Shown: piece after piece, positions 4,132-32,629 of the stretch | How the letters are laid out: the number at the start of each line of letters is the position of its first letter | Position numbering within the stretch: the first letter of the stretch is position 1 | Assembly: GCA_964388035.1 (NCBI GenBank) | Contig: CAYLZE010000003.1 | Span: 56,521-120,520, forward strand | Direction: 5' to 3' | DNA: 64,000 nucleotides | Origin: an uncultured archaeon | Lineage (GTDB): Archaea > Asgardarchaeota > Lokiarchaeia > Sigyniarchaeales > SOKP01 | Translations under genes and position numbers: made by a program | Notes under the pieces: generated by a model | The model's input: only the letters and a program-made list of their open reading frames with translations | Told to the model about the DNA's origin: nothing | Databases searched by the model: none

Positions 4132-4206
4132 TTGTCTCAAGATATTTTATTTATTATTTTTTTAATTTAAATCTAAAAAATATAGAAGGTAAAAAGGTAG
4201 ATTAAA

Positions 4207-5007
4207 ATTAGTTTTAAAAAAGATGTTAAAGAAATTGAAAGGAAAAAAGAAGAATTAAGAACGACTAAATTTAGAAATACGGAAATGATCACGGTATTAT
4301 GGGAGACCAAAAAAGAAATTATAGAGCGCTTGCTTCCGCCCCCCCTGAAACCAGCTAGTAGACCCATTGTAATGAGTTTTATCGCTAAATATCCCTCTAC
4401 AAATCAAGGCCTTCCATATAATGAAGGGGCTCTCACTTTAAGGTGCCAATACCAAGATATACAAGGAAATTATTATTTAGCAATGCCCGTTACGGATGAT
4501 CGTGCCATGATTGGAGGGCGGGAGATTTTTGGATTTCCCAAGAAAATGGCGAATGTTGTGTTAACACGGGAGAATAATGAAGTCCACGCTTATTCGGAGC
4601 GGTTAGGAGTTAAAAATATTGAGATCCATGCTAAATTATCAGGTAAATTCAATGATCCCGAAACTCCCAAACTCATTAAAGAATTGGAATTATTGCCAGG
4701 AAGAAAAAAAAATACGATAAATTTTAATTATAAATACTTTCCACACCCAACCAAGGAAGGATTTGATCATGATCCGTGGTTAGTACAGCAAGAAACTTCT
4801 GTAGGACCAAAATCCATGGAAATGGGAGAAGCAGATATACAATTAAACTCAACCATTCATGATCCTTGGGCTGAAGTGGAAATAGTAAAAGTCTTGGGAG
4901 CTTTATACTTGAGAGGGGATAATGAAATGCTACCAGGAAAAATCGTGGCCAAAGTAGATTCAGAACAGTTTTTACCTTATTCTTATAATAAATGGGATTG
5001 GTACTAG
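4207..5007 (+). CDS. acetoacetate decarboxylase-like (ADC) family protein; probable ATT start at 4207 (ORF track starts at 4285)
   Basis: LLPPPL, YNEGAL, GGREIFGFPKKMA (Schiff-base Lys motif); frame open back to TAG at 4198-4200 with no ATG/GTG/TTG. Confidence 0.88.
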   Translation: MSFKKDVKEIERKKEELRTTKFRNTEMITVLWETKKEIIERLLPPPLKPASRPIVMSFIAKYPSTNQGLPYNEGALTLRCQYQDIQGNYYLAMPVTDDRAMIGGREIFGFPKKMANVVLTRENNEVHAYSERLGVKNIEIHAKLSGKFNDPETPKLIKELELLPGRKKNTINFNYKYFPHPTKEGFDHDPWLVQQETSVGPKSMEMGEADIQLNSTIHDPWAEVEIVKVLGALYLRGDNEMLPGKIVAKVDSEQFLPYSYNKWDWY

Positions 5008-5154
5008 CCTTATATAAAAAAACAATTATTTTCAGATATTCTTTTTCTATTCTTTATTTTCTTTTAAAATTCAAACAGGATGTTGTAGAACATCATTGAT
5101 TTTTCTTTGGTTAATTGCAATTTAAATACAAACCATGTAAATTAAAAAAGGAAT

Positions 5155-5282
5155 AAGGAAGGAAATGACTCATGGAAATCCTTTAAAATTTTTAAAGGAA
5201 AAGTTTGAACCACAAGGGAATTATTCCAGAGTGGTCAGAGGGCGAAATCCAATATGCGATTTCCATAGAATCCATTCCTTTA
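5155..5282. ncRNA. putative structured RNA (multi-stem junction) between convergent genes
   Basis: ATGGAAATC(5172-80)/GATTTCCAT(5258-66) closing stem extended by GACTC/GAATC and AAGGAA/TTCCTT; internal hairpins CTTTAAA-ATT-TTTAAAG, ACCAC..GGAA-TTA-TTCC..GTGGT, GGG-CGAAA-TCC. Confidence 0.45.
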
Positions 5283-5562
5283 TATTTTAGGCGTTTTAAT
5301 ATTTAAAAAGTTGATGAATATATAGAATTTCCGTGTTATCCGTACGAATGATTATTGAATATTTATTCATTAATCCTAAGAATTAACTAGGTATTATTTG
5401 AGGATTCATGCAAAATCGATTAATGGTTACTAAACCAAATAATGAAATTTAGCGTTTGAACCAACTTCTTCTGTAGATCAGTCATAAATGATTCTCAATC
5501 AAAAATACTAAATGATAAATAGAAAATAAAAAAGGATTTCTATAGGTCAAAACTTTAGTAGC

Positions 5563-6564
5563 TTAGAGTCTCTTGATGACTACATCTGCCATACGATGAC
5601 TAAAACCCCATTCATTATCGTACCAGCTAAGGACTGCCACGTGATTTCCTATTACATTTGTCCATAATGGGCAAAATATGGAGCTATGTGAGTTCTTTAT
5701 GATATCTTTACTCACGATAGGATCGGGGTTATATTGCAAAATGCCTGCGAGTTTCCCTTCGGAATATTCTTTCATCTTTTTATTTATTTCTTCTACTGTA
5801 GGCGTTTTTTCAACATTTACTTTTAGATCTACTACACTTCCATCAACTGTAGGTACCCTTATTGCCATACCATCGAGTTTTCCGTTTAAATCGGGGAAGA
5901 TCAAACCAATAGCTTTGGCGGCTCCCGTCGAAGTTGGGATTATATTTTCCGCACAAGCTCGCCCACGTGTCATTTTTATAGGATCCCCTGCCTTGGCAGT
6001 ATCCACAGGTGCTTGCGTGCTAGTATAGGAGTGAATAGTAGTCATTAATCCATTTTTGATAGTAAAGGATTCGTGGAGCACTCTCACGATAGGTCCTAAA
6101 CAATTAGTGGTGCAGGATGCATTGGAGACAATTTTATGTTCTGGTTTAAGTTTATCATCGTTACATCCCATGACTACGGTAAAATCGGGATTCTTGGCGG
6201 GTGCAGAGATTAAAACTTTATCGGCTCCTGCGTCTAAATGTTTCGAAGCACCATCTCTATCAATGAAAAAGCCAGTAGATTCTATCGCAACGCTAATATC
6301 ATTCTTGGAATGAGGTAAATCTGCAGGGTTTCTCTCTTTTGTTATGGGAATTGTTTTTCCATCCACGATGAGAGTATCTTCGCTTGACTCAACTTTTCCA
6401 GGGAAATTTCCGAAGACCGTGTCATACTTTAGAGCATAAGCTAAGTATTTTGGGTTAAACAAATCATTGATGTAAACCACTTCAATTTTGGGGTTTTTCC
6501 AGACGGCTCGAAAAAAATTGCGGCCAATTCGTCCAAATCCATTAATCATTATTCTTTTTGGAAT
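5563..6564 (-). CDS. gap: class I (bacterial/eukaryal type) glyceraldehyde-3-phosphate dehydrogenase; probable ATT start at 6564
   Basis: INGFGRIGR, ESTG.F, SNASCTTNCL, IIPTSTGAAKA, WYDNEWGFS. Confidence 0.96.
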   Translation of the reverse strand: MPKRIMINGFGRIGRNFFRAVWKNPKIEVVYINDLFNPKYLAYALKYDTVFGNFPGKVESSEDTLIVDGKTIPITKERNPADLPHSKNDISVAIESTGFFIDRDGASKHLDAGADKVLISAPAKNPDFTVVMGCNDDKLKPEHKIVSNASCTTNCLGPIVRVLHESFTIKNGLMTTIHSYTSTQAPVDTAKAGDPIKMTRGRACAENIIPTSTGAAKAIGLIFPDLNGKLDGMAIRVPTVDGSVVDLKVNVEKTPTVEEINKKMKEYSEGKLAGILQYNPDPIVSKDIIKNSHSSIFCPLWTNVIGNHVAVLSWYDNEWGFSHRMADVVIKRL

Positions 6565-6570
6565 TTCTTA

Positions 6571-6577
6571 TCACTCT
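6571..6577 (-). promoter_or_regulatory. Shine-Dalgarno-like AGAGTGA upstream of gap
   Basis: Core AGT ends 8 nt before ATT 6564, the same spacing as GGT to ATG at 32042. Confidence 0.6.
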
Positions 6578-6831
6578 CTTTATAAGTTTATTTCACAAGT
6601 AGGGATACAAGAGGAATTAATAAATCTAACATGTAACATTTATACATTTGAGGTAAAAGTCGAATGGAAGGAGGGAGGAAAATTTAATTTTTTTTGAAGA
6701 GATGAAACATTTTAAGTAACGAATGAGGGAAGAAATTATTCGAGAATTATTTTTAAAGAAAATTCTCAATCAATTTACTCCGCTTCTACAAATTTATTTG
6801 ATATTCATTTAAACTTTAAACTAAGAAACTT

Positions 6832-7233
6832 CTATTGTTTTGGTTTCCAATGTTGGAAATATTGAAATAATTCTATAAGATTATCGGAAGGATCCAGAAG
6901 AAGGATTTGCTTACCACCGACTCCTTTGACCATCTCATTACGAAAACGGCAACCTTCTTTTTTTAATTTTTCTATGAGTGAATCTAAATCTTCGACTTCA
7001 ATTGAAATTCTATTCCATCCTCCCGGGATTTGAGGAGTTCCATCTGGCATAGCATAACCACCCCCTTCTTTCTCACTAGGTTTGGTAAGATATAATTGGA
7101 TCCCTTCTCGTGAGACAATAGCGAATTCTGGTGCGGGGTGCATGACTATTTCAAATTCTAACATTTTGGTGTAAAATTCAATAGCTTTCTCTACATCATT
7201 AACGATATATCTAAAATTTATTGCCGACATCAT
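6832..7233 (-). CDS. VOC/glyoxalase family protein
   Basis: YIVNDVEKAIEFY, VEDLD, DPSDNLIELF. Confidence 0.9.
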   Translation of the reverse strand: MMSAINFRYIVNDVEKAIEFYTKMLEFEIVMHPAPEFAIVSREGIQLYLTKPSEKEGGGYAMPDGTPQIPGGWNRISIEVEDLDSLIEKLKKEGCRFRNEMVKGVGGKQILLLDPSDNLIELFQYFQHWKPKQ

Positions 7234-7628
7234 TTAATTATCCTCAACACCCAATAGTTTTCTTTTAAGTCAAAAAAGAATAGATTTGAACTAATCATTC
7301 TCTCTTTCTTGTCCAAATTTTTAATTATCTTTAAATTTTATAGGTATTTTTTTCTAATTTATCAAGGATAATGCACCATCTTAAACTTTCAGTACATAAA
7401 ATATACATGATTTTTGATTTTTAGATAAATAATTTGCATACTAGAACATAATATCTTTATCGCGTGTTTTGTCGTTTTGGAAGGGTGTTTCTTTACATTT
7501 CAGTCATGGTATTCATGTAAGAAAAAAACAAGAATTGGACTATAAAAAGCATTTATAATGGGTCAGATTTGGTAGATTATAGAGAAATAAATTTAAATTA
7601 ACAATAAATGTAAAGAGTTGATAGAAAA

Positions 7629-8141
7629 ATGGGAGCCGGAAAAACTTTTTCCATTATTGCTGGAATTATCTCACTAATCTCCATGTTTTTTCTAACATGG
7701 TATGTAAAATTGGAAGATGGTGTGCTGAAGCTGGCTTATGGTATTGTAGGATTTAGAAGCATTCCTCACATGTTTGTATATCCTGGATTATATGGAACTC
7801 CGTATTGGGTCACTTATATTTTTGCCGGGTTATTTATTTGGCTTTTAATCTCCCCATTTATACAATTTGGAGGAGTTAAACACCAATTTATTTCAATTTT
7901 GGGCGCAACCATGCCCATATTGATAGCAACGATTATATTATTGAGCGGGTTTGGTGGTCCCATACCCCCTTTAATGAGTTATGTGGATGCTTTTTTGGAG
8001 TCGGAAGTCTTAATACCAGGAATTATCCCTTTAACTTACGAGATTCCTGGGACTTTTTATCCGATTGGTGTTTATGGAGTTCTTACTGGGGGCGTTCTTA
8101 GCTTAATTGCTGGATTTATTCCCCGAAAAAAGAAGGAATAA
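7629..8141 (+). CDS. 4-TM membrane protein, paralogue of 9541..10029
   Basis: Four hydrophobic segments; shared MGA.K..S.IAGI, AYGI, PGIIP, GG.LSLI.GFI motifs. Confidence 0.8.
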   Translation: MGAGKTFSIIAGIISLISMFFLTWYVKLEDGVLKLAYGIVGFRSIPHMFVYPGLYGTPYWVTYIFAGLFIWLLISPFIQFGGVKHQFISILGATMPILIATIILLSGFGGPIPPLMSYVDAFLESEVLIPGIIPLTYEIPGTFYPIGVYGVLTGGVLSLIAGFIPRKKKE

Positions 8142-8217
8142 ATAAATTATTTTTTTAATTTTTTTTTTTAATTTTTTATCTCTTTTTATCGTTCTTCATG
8201 TTCAATATTATAATCTA

Positions 8218-9090
8218 TTAATTTTCTTGTCCGATGAGAAATTTGATGTATTTGGGAAAATTCTTGGGATGAAAAAAGAACGCGGGAGTGCTTTTTTTAT
8301 AATCTTCATAACTCGCTCCAAAACGCTGTAGTAATTCTTTTTCTTCGACAACTTTTACATGGATATTCATGCCGATTATAAACATCACGCAAAGAATTAT
8401 TGAAAATATCGAAAATCGGAAGAAGATAAAGCTAAAACTCATCAAAAAAAGCCCAAGATAAGTGGGATGGCGTACTATCGAATAAATTTCAAGATTTTGT
8501 ACTTCAGATTCTTCGGGATAATAAACATATAAAACTGACATGTAATCGATGCCAAAGGTATGTAAAGACCTTAGCACAGTTCCGAGTGCAAATATTAGGA
8601 ATCCTAATCCTATAAGAAGTCTAGGGATATAAGTAAGATCGGCATTACCGAAAACAAAATATGAAAGAGGTTTAGACATGGTCCACATGAGGGAGCTTTC
8701 ATCTAATTGGGCATAAAAAACATCAAAGGGAATAAATCCGTGTAACATAGAAACCACAAAAAAGGGGATTCCAATAACTACATAGGGAAATGCCATTTGA
8801 TATGCACGTTCTTGGGATAACTCTAAAAATCTTTTTTTTTTACTCCAAATGCAGCTAACAAGATAAATTCCCGTGGCTTCGAAAATAAGAGAAGAAATAA
8901 CGACTATGAATGGTCCTATGCTCCTTAAAATTAAATTGGAAGAATAAAGTACTGGAAGAAGATCTAAAAAGATCATCAAACACAACGGACCAATGAATGA
9001 AAAAGCCATGATGGGAAGGTAAATAAAAAGTTTATTTCCGGGATAATCAGGGAGCTTCGATCTTAATTTCTCTGTTCCTTTAATATGCAT
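8218..9090 (-). CDS. ICMT/PEMT-family membrane methyltransferase
   Basis: IYSIVRHPTYLG and EEKELLQRFGASYEDYKKSTPAF. Confidence 0.85.
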   Translation of the reverse strand: MHIKGTEKLRSKLPDYPGNKLFIYLPIMAFSFIGPLCLMIFLDLLPVLYSSNLILRSIGPFIVVISSLIFEATGIYLVSCIWSKKKRFLELSQERAYQMAFPYVVIGIPFFVVSMLHGFIPFDVFYAQLDESSLMWTMSKPLSYFVFGNADLTYIPRLLIGLGFLIFALGTVLRSLHTFGIDYMSVLYVYYPEESEVQNLEIYSIVRHPTYLGLFLMSFSFIFFRFSIFSIILCVMFIIGMNIHVKVVEEKELLQRFGASYEDYKKSTPAFFFHPKNFPKYIKFLIGQEN

Positions 9091-9540
9091 AAAAAGTTCA
9101 CTTAAACTAAAATATAATTTACAATATAAAGCTTTTTGCGTTTAATCGTAAAGGTTGTGAGGGATTTTTTGTACTATAATGTAAAAAATTCAATTTAAAC
9201 CAAGTTAGTGATTAGAATATAAATTTAAAATAAAAATTAATTTAAAATTACATTCAATTACAATTAGATGCTCTGAAATCAAGATTAAGGTAAGAAATAC
9301 GGCTTGAGATCGAAAAACTTACAAAATACTTACAAATTTCTAAGCTCTATTGACAATTTTGAGGGTATAGGAAATTGAACTTTTATTGGATATGTATGGA
9401 TCAAGGGAAAATTCTTTATTTTTTATTATTTTTCGCGGTTTTTTTTAATAAATATTGTATAAAGATTTTAAAAGATAGATTGCTATATTAAAATCATCAG
9501 AATTAAAAAAATAATTTATACAAAAAAATAGTGATATATT

Positions 9541-10029
9541 ATGGGCGCAGAAAAAGGTTTAAGCGTAATAGCAGGTATTTTAACGCTGATTGCCACCTAT
9601 ATATTAGTATGGTATACTACTGCGGGAGGTGAATACGCTTATGGGATTGGAGGAATACTTGGTTTTCTTGGTTTACTTACAGATTTTACTAATTGGGTCA
9701 CATATGTCGTCATAGTTATCGATGTCTTGCTTTTAATTTCATTTCTTTTACAATTTATAGGAGCAAAAAGCCGAGCAACCGCAATTATCGGAGCTATCAT
9801 GCCATTAGTCATTGGAATTTTTATTATCTTAAACACTTTTGGATTAGATGTTATTGGATTCATGAATTTTCTAAGCGTGTTCGAGACCTCCTTCACGATT
9901 GTTCCTGGGATCATACCTTTCGATTATGCACTTCCTACCCGACCTGAATCAATAGGGACATATGTGTTATTACTTGGTGGACTTTTAAGTTTAATTAGTG
10001 GCTTTATAAGTAGATCTATCTATTATTAA
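9541..10029 (+). CDS. 4-TM membrane protein, paralogue of 7629..8141
   Basis: Same motifs as the paralogue; AGTGA SD upstream. Confidence 0.8.
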   Translation: MGAEKGLSVIAGILTLIATYILVWYTTAGGEYAYGIGGILGFLGLLTDFTNWVTYVVIVIDVLLLISFLLQFIGAKSRATAIIGAIMPLVIGIFIILNTFGLDVIGFMNFLSVFETSFTIVPGIIPFDYALPTRPESIGTYVLLLGGLLSLISGFISRSIYY

Positions 10030-10161
10030 ATATCATTTCTTTTTTTAATCTTACTTTTCTTTTCTTTTCTTTATTTTCTATATTCTTAAAGCCTTCTAAC
10101 GAAAACTTTTATCGAAATGTGATGTTAAGATGAATTATAATTTATCCGTAATCAATCATTT

Positions 10162-10695
10162 TTGGAAAAAGATATGGAAGAAATAAAAGAACCTGATGGG
10201 TTAGAGAAAAAGTCAATTGCATTCGAAAAGAAAAGCATTAGTTTGCGGGTGGCATTAACAGCCATGACAGCAGCTTTATATACTGCTTTAGGGTATATTT
10301 TTCAGCCGATAAGCTTTTTAGGAATCCAATTTCGCGTGGCAGAATTGATTGCGGGAATGTGTATTTTATTTCCTTTTGAAGGGTTAATTGGCAAAGTAAT
10401 TGGTGTTTTTTTCGTTAACCTAAGTTCTCCCTTGGGGATCATAGATTTACTTAGTTGCATTGTAAATATTCCTGCTTTATATTGTATTATCATTTTTAGG
10501 AATAAGAAAAGATTGAAATACTTAGGTGGAATTATATACGCAATGATCATTTCCTTATATGTGGCAATTATCATTAATTTCGTATTACAATTGCCCATTT
10601 GGTTGATTTTCATTCAAGTATTGGTTTCTGAAGTCATACTAGCTTCTTTAGGGATTTTTCTATTCGATTATATACGAAAAAAAATCGAATTATAA
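10162..10695 (+). CDS. queT: QueT-family transporter (ECF S-component for queuosine precursor)
   Basis: AALYTAL..PISFLGIQFRVAE, N..SPLGIID. Confidence 0.75.
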   Translation: MEKDMEEIKEPDGLEKKSIAFEKKSISLRVALTAMTAALYTALGYIFQPISFLGIQFRVAELIAGMCILFPFEGLIGKVIGVFFVNLSSPLGIIDLLSCIVNIPALYCIIIFRNKKRLKYLGGIIYAMIISLYVAIIINFVLQLPIWLIFIQVLVSEVILASLGIFLFDYIRKKIEL

Positions 10696-10973
10696 TTAAA
10701 TTCAAAATAAGTTCAAAACGGGATTAAAGATAACTTCCAAAGTCTATTTTTTAATAAATTCTCTATATTACCGAATAGAACTATATTTCTCTTAGAATCT
10801 ATAGACTTAAATCTTAAATGGAGCGGGTTTTATTCATTAAATCGAGAATATATTAAAGAAAGTGTGATAAAAATCGAAAATCTTATATTAGAAAATTACA
10901 ATGCATCCGAGAATTTTAGAGACATTAGTCTTATTCCAAATGAATCTAATACAATTTGCCTTAAAAATAGCTT

Positions 10974-11423
10974 TTAAATCGATAAATAATTAGTCTTCAA
11001 GTTATTTGGAGGTTCAGATTGAACACAAACGGGCTCAATTAAGCTTTTAATTACGTTATTGAAGCTTTGATATTTCCTAATCTCTTTAACTTCCTGATAT
11101 GAAGCTTCCGGATACATGATTAAAAAAGTATTTAAACATTTCATGAGACTTTTTTCATAGAATGTAATTTTGTCAGAATTATCTAATAAAAAGAAGATCA
11201 TGGTATTTTTTTTCTCATGCATTAAAAACTTTAATTGATTCATCTGAATTAACCGTATTCTATTTTGACCCAATTCATTGCAGAAATGTCTAATTGCTGT
11301 CAAAAAACAGCCAATTAGCTCAGATCCTAGCGCTTCCTCTTTATATTGATTAAGAGAATTAAATTTTTTCGTATAGAGCGTTATTCCGCTAGGAATGTTT
11401 ATTATTGATACTATATGTATTAT
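10974..11423 (-). CDS. longin/roadblock-like domain protein (Asgard type); probable ATA start at 11423
   Basis: Extended frame reads (M)IHIVSIINIPSGITLYTKKF..SELIGCFLTAIRHFCNEL, matching the II..SG..L...L.SG.LTA...F pattern of 28344..29192. Confidence 0.7.
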   Translation of the reverse strand: MIHIVSIINIPSGITLYTKKFNSLNQYKEEALGSELIGCFLTAIRHFCNELGQNRIRLIQMNQLKFLMHEKKNTMIFFLLDNSDKITFYEKSLMKCLNTFLIMYPEASYQEVKEIRKYQSFNNVIKSLIEPVCVQSEPPNNLKTNYLSI

Positions 11424-11429
11424 TATTCA

Positions 11430-11436
11430 TCACTCC
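11430..11436 (-). promoter_or_regulatory. Shine-Dalgarno GGAGTGA upstream of the longin-like gene
   Basis: Core AGT ends 8 nt before ATA 11423. Confidence 0.6.
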
Positions 11437-11736
11437 AATCATTATAAAAAAATGATTACTCACCTATTGTTTATAAAAAACCATTTAAACTAGATGCTTA
11501 TATCATCTTTTCAATTTTACTGTTTTCACCACAATTAACTCCAGCAAAAAAGGAATATCTTTCATAGTTCAAATTTTCCAAATTCATGGCTTTCATTAAT
11601 ATTAAAGTGAAACAGAAAATCTTAAAAAATGAGTAGGTGAAATAAATTTAATAATTTCTTGAAATGAAAGCATTTGATTTATTTATTAATTCCTTTGAAA
11701 TAGATAGTGGATAATAAGTTATACAGACGATTAAGA

Positions 11737-12156
11737 TTATTTGATGATATCTGTAATGAAGCAGGTTTCTATTATTTTAATTCCTTCAATACGTGAAATT
11801 TTATTCTCAATAATTGGGTTGAACTCCTCAATAGAAGGTATTTCTAGCTTTAAAAATAACCCGCATTCTCCTGAAAGTCTCCAGATATCCGAAATTTCCT
11901 CTATAGTTGTTAATTCTTTTATAATATTCTTAATATTTTTAAAATTGGGTTCTATTTTTATCGTTGCACGTATTTTAGGTTTTGAGTTGATCTCATAATC
12001 AATAGTAAATTTTTTGATTATATCATCTTTAATTAAGCTTTTTACCCTCCTCCTGATAGTTGCTTCTGTTCTTCCTACTACTTTCGCAATATCGCTATAT
12101 GAAGATCGACTATCTTTTTCTAATTCCTCCAAAATTCTCTGATCTATTACGTCAAT
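11737..12156 (-). CDS. Lrp/AsnC family transcriptional regulator; probable ATT start at 12156
   Basis: (M)DVIDQRILEELEKDSRSSYSDIAK..EATIRRRVKSL...IIKKFTI; C-terminal RAM domain (LSGE..LFL). Confidence 0.9.
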   Translation of the reverse strand: MDVIDQRILEELEKDSRSSYSDIAKVVGRTEATIRRRVKSLIKDDIIKKFTIDYEINSKPKIRATIKIEPNFKNIKNIIKELTTIEEISDIWRLSGECGLFLKLEIPSIEEFNPIIENKISRIEGIKIIETCFITDIIK

Positions 12157-12165
12157 AAAATTACT

Positions 12166-12171
12166 TCACCT
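12166..12171 (-). promoter_or_regulatory. Shine-Dalgarno AGGTGA upstream of the Lrp gene
   Basis: GGT ends 11 nt before ATT 12156, the same spacing as for the iscS ATG. Confidence 0.65.
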
Positions 12172-32041: not shown

Positions 32042-32629
32042 ATGGCGCAACCAATTGGTCCTTTAATGATGGAGCATCGGCTAATAGAAAGGATGATAGC
32101 TCTACTTAAGAATGAACTCCAACGGATAACAAGTAAAACAGAAGTAAATTCTGTTTTTATTAATAATGCCGTGGACTTCATGAGAATTTATGCAGACAGA
32201 ACCCATCACGGAAAAGAGGAGGATATTTTGTTTAGAGAGTTGAAAAAAAAGAAGATCTCTAAACAACACGAAACCATGATGAATGATCTTATAAATGATC
32301 ACATGTTCGCACGGAAAACAACAGGAGAATTAGTTAAAGCTAACCAAGATCATCTAAATGGAATTTCGGATGCGATTAATATTATCATCGAAAAACTCGC
32401 TATTTTAACGGAATTTTATCCCAAACACATTGAAAAAGAAGATAAACATTTTTTCATACCTGTCATGGAATATTTCACGCAAACTGAAAAGAATAACATG
32501 CTTGAAGAGGGACAAGTATATGATCGGCGAATGATTCATCGTAAATATAATTCGTTCGTCCTTGCAATTGAAGAAGAACGGCAACTAATTACAAAAAGAT
32601 CAAATGATACATGGATAAATTACATGTAA
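32042..32629 (+). CDS. hemerythrin/HHE domain protein
   Basis: EHRLIER, HHGKEEDILF, DH, HIEKEDKHFF; GGTGA SD. Confidence 0.9.
   Translation: MAQPIGPLMMEHRLIERMIALLKNELQRITSKTEVNSVFINNAVDFMRIYADRTHHGKEEDILFRELKKKKISKQHETMMNDLINDHMFARKTTGELVKANQDHLNGISDAINIIIEKLAILTEFYPKHIEKEDKHFFIPVMEYFTQTEKNNMLEEGQVYDRRMIHRKYNSFVLAIEEERQLITKRSNDTWINYM

Follow-up and report, generated by a model that had tools for sequence, protein, structure and literature searches.

In Escherichia coli, AUU acts as a start codon behind a Shine-Dalgarno (SD) sequence in infC, which encodes the autoregulated initiation factor IF3, and in pcnB; such starts are rare regulatory cases in bacteria. ATT, ATC and ATA are listed as alternative starts in NCBI translation table 11, and how stringently start codons are chosen differs among bacteria, archaea and eukaryotes. 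An ATT start is described for ebpA of Enterococcus faecalis (PMC4447247). The initiation factor aIF1 of Sulfolobus solfataricus and Pyrococcus abyssi discriminates against non-AUG codons by destabilizing the complexes formed on them (PMC6237735). As cited in two publications, eukaryotic eIF1 autoregulates its synthesis through an AUG in poor context, and initiation at CUG, ACG and AUU is tuned by the levels of eIF1 and eIF5 (PMC6237735, PMC4705826). For a Lokiarchaeon tubulin, one laboratory proposed an ATT start and repaired the N-terminus by hand (PMC13394414); beyond this single-gene remark, the literature searched contains no genome-wide account of such starts. Here we analyze a 64,000-nucleotide stretch of an uncultured archaeon (the window; Asgardarchaeota, Lokiarchaeia, Sigyniarchaeales; assembly GCA_964388035.1, contig CAYLZE010000003.1, positions 56,521 to 120,520), in which four genes probably start at isoleucine codons: an acetoacetate decarboxylase family gene (ADC), gap, a longin/roadblock-like gene and an Lrp/AsnC regulator.

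A sequence-only reading of the window had assigned Ile-codon starts to these four genes. In each of them an in-frame stop is followed by ATT or ATA, with no canonical start (ATG, GTG or TTG) before the conserved protein sequence. We conclude that the ATT and ATA sites are very likely real translation starts, used by SD-anchored near-cognate initiation, and put the probability of this reading at about 0.88. Each protein was searched for in 30 related genomes, where we examined the codons between the upstream stop and the conserved motif. The N-terminal extensions are present in the orthologues, whose Met codon falls exactly on ATT 4207, ATT 6564, ATA 11423 and ATT 12156 and stands at an unchanged SD distance, as had been anticipated from the window itself. 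In the following, G000 denotes this genome, G001 a genome of the same genus, and L-numbers loci in relatives.

The genome is metagenome-assembled, with 5.47 Mb in 211 contigs, 33% GC and an estimated contamination of 7%. From all of its 4321 non-overlapping stop-to-stop open reading frames (ORFs) of at least 100 codons we derived the SD consensus (A)GGAGGTGA, and ATG starts in this set lie at an aligned spacing of 3-10 nt after GGAGGTGA. The gaps of 8, 8, 8 and 11 nt that the sequence-only reading had measured from the AGGT/GGTG core translate into aligned spacings of 6, 6, 6 and 9 nt, which are inside this ATG range. The likeness it had drawn to the ATG gene at 32042 holds as well, with AAGGTGA and 6 nt in the same arrangement, and its figure of 55 window genes equals our count of ORFs of at least 100 codons.

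ADC occupies positions 4207..5007 on the plus strand, and its first canonical start, ATG 4285, lies 26 codons downstream of ATT 4207. The SD-like region (4187..4200, plus strand) contains AGGT twice, at 4187-4190 and 4195-4198; the second copy stands at an aligned spacing of 6 nt from ATT 4207 and runs into the in-frame stop TAG (4198-4200). The stop is followed by ATT 4201, AAA and ATT 4207. Orthologues begin with ATG AGT TTT AAA opposite ATT AGT TTT AAA of the window, which places the start at 4207, and ATT 4201 was dropped as a candidate. The product matches Pfam PF06314 (E = 3.7e-52; 177.7 bits against a cut-off of 29.8), and the match begins 11 residues before ATG 4285.

The gap gene, encoding a type I GAPDH, lies on the minus strand (5563..6564) with a start at ATT 6564; ATG 6549 follows 5 codons downstream and has no SD. 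The SD region (6565..6579, minus strand) reads AGAGAGTGA, in which GTGAT is a 5-mer match, and the stop lies within the 6-nt spacer, giving the order GTGA (6574-6571), TAA (6570-6568), GAA and ATT (6564-6562). Gp_dh_N and Gp_dh_C (PF00044/PF02800) both match the product, which carries the NAD-binding motif INGFGRIGR, and position 2 of the Gp_dh_N profile corresponds to the residue two codons upstream of ATG 6549. All 19 orthologues (19/19) start with M-[AVP]-K-[RK]-[VI]-x-ING. Locus L005 has ATG CCA AAA AGA opposite ATT CCA AAA AGA of the window, and L003 and L014 show GTGA TAA AAA followed by ATG or GTG, the arrangement seen in the window.

In the longin/roadblock-like gene (10974..11423, minus strand), no canonical start follows ATA 11423 until TTG 11303, 40 codons further downstream. 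Its SD and spacer (11424..11436, minus strand) comprise GGAGTGA (11436-11430) and the 6 nt TGAATA, which include the stop TGA (11429-11427). Three ATA codons follow the stop, at 11426, 11423 and 11420. Opposite ATA 11423 the homologues L041 and L039 carry ATG, which in L041 stands behind GTGA and 6 nt as in the window; ATA 11423 fits both the SD spacing and this first ATG, and ATA 11426 and ATA 11420 were rejected. ATA 11414, which lies opposite a second, internal ATG of the homologues, may serve as an additional start. The SD spacer also contains an out-of-frame ATG (11430-11428, minus strand) that opens a frame of only 13 codons. The protein has no Pfam match. Its AlphaFold2 model (mean predicted local distance difference test score 62) has the order beta-beta-alpha-beta-beta-beta-alpha with strand 1 at residues 2-9, and a start at TTG 11303 would delete strands 1 and 2 and the beginning of helix 1. 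The best Foldseek matches are weak (E ~1e-3, TM-scores 0.4-0.6) and are all to MglB, the Sec22b longin domain, AP sigma or Roadblock proteins.

The Lrp/AsnC regulator gene (11737..12156, minus strand) is preceded by AGGTGA (12171-12166), the TGA of which is the in-frame stop, and a 9-nt spacer (SD and spacer 12157..12171, minus strand). Both the N-terminal helix-turn-helix (HTH) domain (PF13404) and the C-terminal ligand-binding domain (PF01037) match the product. Position 1 of the HTH_AsnC profile is the residue of ATT 12156, and the first canonical start, TTG 12132, would cut off the beginning of the HTH domain. Orthologues show ATG GAT GTT ATT GAT opposite ATT GAC GTA ATA GAT of the window; relatives also have TTG, CTG, ATA or ATT at or adjoining the homologous start, each behind an SD.

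We considered termination-reinitiation coupling for the four genes and rejected it: the previous same-strand ORF ends 76-311 nt upstream, so the genes are not translationally coupled. Translation might instead begin at the first downstream ATG, GTG or TTG, yielding shorter proteins and leaving the upstream stretch untranslated and open by chance. Chance open stretches of 10-20 codons do occur at 33% GC, and in gap the ATG is merely 5 codons past the ATT. However, the downstream starts lack an SD, the residues upstream of them are conserved as protein between genera, and their use would cost ADC 26 residues, the longin-like protein its strands 1-2 and the Lrp HTH domain its first helix. We therefore regard downstream initiation as improbable overall; among the four genes, it is a modest possibility for gap alone.

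The sequence-only reading had proposed that SD spacing, compared codon by codon across the genome, would set ATT and ATA apart. In the 4321 ORFs, we scored SD matches of at least 5 nt, at each spacing, for all codons that precede the first canonical start by 6 codons or more. A sharp peak at 6-7 nt emerges for ATT and ATA and for no control codon, bearing out the proposal. At this spacing, an SD match precedes 32/1397 ATT and 23/1018 ATA codons in 5' extensions versus 0.33% of other codons (odds ratio ~7). Across all sense codons the five lowest p-values belong to ATT (1.3e-14), ATA (3.1e-11), ACG (9e-4), CTG (0.03) and ATC (0.05), all of them single-base neighbors of ATG, and AAG and AGG show no enrichment behind an SD. 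The excess over chance amounts to 50-55 genes. The SD-led cases at ATT, ATA or ATC (together ATH) that we listed are unrelated genes and form no repeat family. Serine is the second codon in 29% of cases after an SD-preceded ATH, versus 14% after ATG starts and 7% after internal ATH. Among starts within 4-9 nt of the SD, those at 6-7 nt make up 59/80 for ATH versus 142/331 for ATG. When GGTGA or AGGTGA followed by a spacer and a codon was counted without ORF context, the signal was washed out, and even ATG was enriched just 1.4-1.8-fold. Genes with ATH starts are not significantly clustered along the contigs (3 adjacent pairs versus 0.9 expected, p = 0.07).

Our second test was independent of the SD. 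ORFs from 0.65 Mb of G001 were paired with those of this genome by BLASTP, and pairs in which 8 or more aligned, conserved codons precede the first canonical start were flagged and curated by eye, discarding shadow ORFs, split genes and one possible selenocysteine TGA. In 13/442 orthologue pairs the gene of this genome has conserved protein sequence that begins 8 or more codons before any canonical start. Without the three genes that had guided the choice of contigs, the rate is 10/439 = 2.3%; this is a lower bound, since a short extension like the one in gap escapes the count. The qualifying genes are ADC, Lrp, aIF1, uS10, two genes on contig C14 and one on C103, and those for a sirtuin, an alcohol dehydrogenase, a metallo-beta-lactamase-fold protein, a glutamate-synthase-like protein, a small GTPase and a DapA-like protein; the last has ACG opposite GTG of the relative. 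G001 itself shows a similar rate. Most likely, at least 2-3% of genes in this genome start at ATT, ATA or ATC behind a ribosome-binding site. Routine use of such codons, as the sequence-only reading had suggested from about 4 of 55 genes, is thus supported genome-wide, but the share in the window (4/55, 7%) is above the SD-independent lower bound of 2.3%. In the gene set of this second test, the majority have an SD match of at least 6 nt. Together with the tight clustering at 6-7 nt, this suggests that ATH starts require a strong, well-placed SD.

A few other irregularities came to light in the comparison. A minus-strand ORF on contig C4 of G000 (oriented index 181-733) and its orthologue on G001:C84 both begin directly after a conserved in-frame TGA, and the DNA upstream is conserved too; the TGA could be a selenocysteine codon or mark a split gene and is no start site. 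A PyrG-like ORF on G000:C37 (index 613-2107) and its counterpart on G001:C56 both lack about 60 N-terminal residues in frame, which indicates that a split, a frameshift or an intervening sequence is conserved there. On G001 contigs C28, C56, C84 and C92 (L093-L233), several pairs of adjacent ORFs each align inside one ORF of this genome, owing to frameshifts, pseudogenes or assembly errors in G001. In the window, two paralogous small membrane proteins are encoded 1.4 kb apart on the plus strand, at 7614-8141 (MGAGKTFSIIAGI...) and 9535-10029 (MGAEKGLSVIAGI...).

The candidates selected by their SD were also checked against Pfam. In 14/20 the start of the domain is only a few residues from the ATH codon (about 25 at most) and precedes the first canonical codon by 10-81 codons. 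In the ATH-start proteins, the match begins at residue 3 for AFOR (AFOR_N) and PCNA (PCNA_N), at residue 4 for a response regulator and ApbA, and at residue 12 for V-ATPase D. In the ribosomal protein uS10 the domain (S10) begins at residue 5 and the first of the canonical codons is number 44 of 101; in an aldo/keto reductase these two positions are 19 and 81, and in a Ras-family GTPase they are 10 and 56, the latter beyond the P-loop. Downstream initiation would also remove the P-loop of the GTPase and 44/101 residues of uS10, as well as the zinc knuckle of aIF1. Essential genes are among those affected, namely those for uS10, PCNA, V-ATPase D and aIF1.

The aIF1/SUI1 gene (G000:C78:3051-3377) lies outside the window. 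No canonical start precedes its CxxC..CxC zinc knuckle, and its likely start is ATT 3060, from which the protein reads MKDELICPRC; Methanocaldococcus jannaschii aIF1 (4MO0) aligns from its residue 4. Among the 23 aIF1 loci read across the family, this genome included, 21/23 have ATT or ATC at a conserved I-K/N/S-D/E position and ATG is found in 0/23; the two exceptional loci are likewise devoid of a well-placed canonical start. The gene of a fidelity factor thus carries a conserved weak initiation site. In a sister family the aIF1 start is TTG, GTG, ATA or, in one case, ATG, and in other Asgard families it is mostly ATG or GTG, with ATA or CTG behind GGAGG/AGGTG and 6 nt in several. The sequence-only reading had suggested looking for substitutions in aIF1; a residue comparison with 4MO0 and 5ZCY gave no substitution that could be interpreted confidently. 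The uS10 gene starts with ATA in six genera of the family and with ATT, GTG, ATG or TTG elsewhere, at the same SD distance throughout, and PCNA with ATT in both species of the genus and with ATG in others. From these patterns it follows that weak starts on essential genes survive speciation and swap freely with canonical codons. In one relative (L169, G009:C7), uS10 has TCG at the homologous start behind CGGTGA and 7 nt, with no canonical or ATH codon nearby.

The same patterns bear on the possibility that ATG was misread as ATT or ATA through sequencing or assembly error. A metagenome-assembled genome with 211 contigs and 7% estimated contamination lends itself to this explanation. Yet the same codon class recurs at the same gene position in independent assemblies (aIF1 in more than 20 genomes, uS10 in six genera, PCNA in two species), random errors would not single out SD-led starts at 6-7 nt, and ATT, ATA and ATC are all found. 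We consider error highly improbable.

The only initiator tRNA found is encoded at G000:C31:36337-36435. It has a 23-nt intron 3' of the anticodon and was detected only when ARAGORN was run with introns allowed. A1:U72 is present in the tRNA, its anticodon is a normal CAU, and the anticodon stem contains three G-C pairs. ARAGORN reports 7 tRNA genes without and 22 with introns, and Rfam 19; searching with the pattern of the classical initiator anticodon arm returned no tRNA. Archaeal AUA codons are read by a CAU-anticodon tRNA with a modified C34, and a dedicated device of a related kind might account for the Ile-codon starts: either an additional initiator tRNA whose anticodon is altered or modified (an agmatidine-like C34 reading AUA, for instance) or initiation with tRNA-Ile. 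The tRNA set detected, 19-22 genes, is incomplete, which leaves space for such a molecule. Against this, the sole initiator-type tRNA found is canonical, and ACG and CTG likewise show enrichment or occur at homologous starts, which fits a general tolerance of near-cognate codons better than an Ile-specific device. A dedicated device is accordingly an unlikely explanation, about on a par with downstream initiation.

SD-anchored near-cognate initiation would proceed as follows. The small ribosomal subunit would be anchored by pairing with the SD (consensus GGAGGTGA), which would place the P site 6-7 nt downstream and let translation begin at the near-cognates AUU, AUA or AUC or, less often, at ACG or CUG. 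Most likely the ordinary Met-tRNAi with anticodon CAU would be used with a mismatch at the third position, the weak codon-anticodon pairing being offset by the strong, optimally spaced SD. Such compensation would let the start codon drift among ATG, GTG, TTG, ATH, CTG and ACG at a fixed distance from the SD. The relaxed start-codon selection suggested by the sequence-only reading would agree with the quick interchange of ATG, GTG, TTG, ATA, ATT, ATC, CTG and ACG at fixed SD spacing seen among relatives. The retention of ATT or ATC on aIF1 across the family may reflect a self-limiting feedback like that of bacterial infC or eukaryotic eIF1, in which aIF1 would repress its own translation via its weak start. 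More tentatively, and with somewhat less than even confidence, we propose that start-codon stringency is lowered throughout the family and patchily across the phylum, with AUU, AUA, AUC, ACG and CUG graded by SD strength and aIF1 level and with aIF1 on AUU or AUC acting as a homeostatic feedback sensor.

Several observations weigh against near-cognate initiation at these sites. The SD of ADC is a 4-mer only. In gap, initiation could occur at ATG 6549, with a slightly shorter product. The 9-nt spacing of Lrp lies outside the sharp 6-7 nt peak, although inside the ATG range. The genome contains no 16S rRNA gene, so the anti-SD had to be deduced from the SD consensus; an Rfam search of the window gave no matches. 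Finally, since not all tRNA genes are represented in the assembly, the organism may have another initiator tRNA of an unusual kind.

Because Prodigal-type gene callers consider ATG, GTG and TTG only, no fewer than 2-3% of the proteins in these Asgard genomes are deposited in truncated form or missed. These include eukaryote-signature proteins that are cloned and studied structurally: small GTPases, longin/roadblock proteins, tubulin and PCNA. A lineage adjoining the eukaryotic stem would tolerate near-cognate starts on essential genes and keep its eIF1 homologue on a weak codon, and the evolution of initiation fidelity and its feedback control would become testable in cultured relatives. If the proposed mechanism is true, AUU and AUA initiation behind GGAGGUGA is expected at 6-7 nt only and should be lowered by excess aIF1.

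Compared with known systems, the starts described here resemble the bacterial AUU starts in that a near-cognate Ile codon replaces AUG at normal SD spacing, and the resemblance to infC extends to the gene of a fidelity factor being itself on a weak codon (aIF1 here, infC in bacteria). In contrast to the handful of regulatory exceptions in bacteria, they involve at least 2-3% of genes, including those for uS10, PCNA and V-ATPase D. The factors concerned are archaeal/eukaryotic (aIF1, aIF1A and aIF2) rather than IF3. The parallel with eukaryotes is that aIF1 is a homologue of eIF1 with a weak initiation site on its own mRNA and that the same near-cognate codons are tolerated, AAG and AGG not being enriched. 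Unlike in eukaryotes, however, positioning would depend on SD pairing instead of scanning and Kozak context, eIF5 takes no part, and the link to eIF1 is inferred from sequence. With the model archaea, the lineage shares the same factor and the same SD-led pre-initiation complex, but it evidently lets AUH codons through when the SD is strong. A precedent is the Lokiarchaeon tubulin, which comes from the same type of lineage and likewise had a truncated first beta-strand and an ATT at a plausible ribosome-binding-site distance (PMC13394414); what was presented there as a rare one-off appears here as a genome-wide and family-wide habit.

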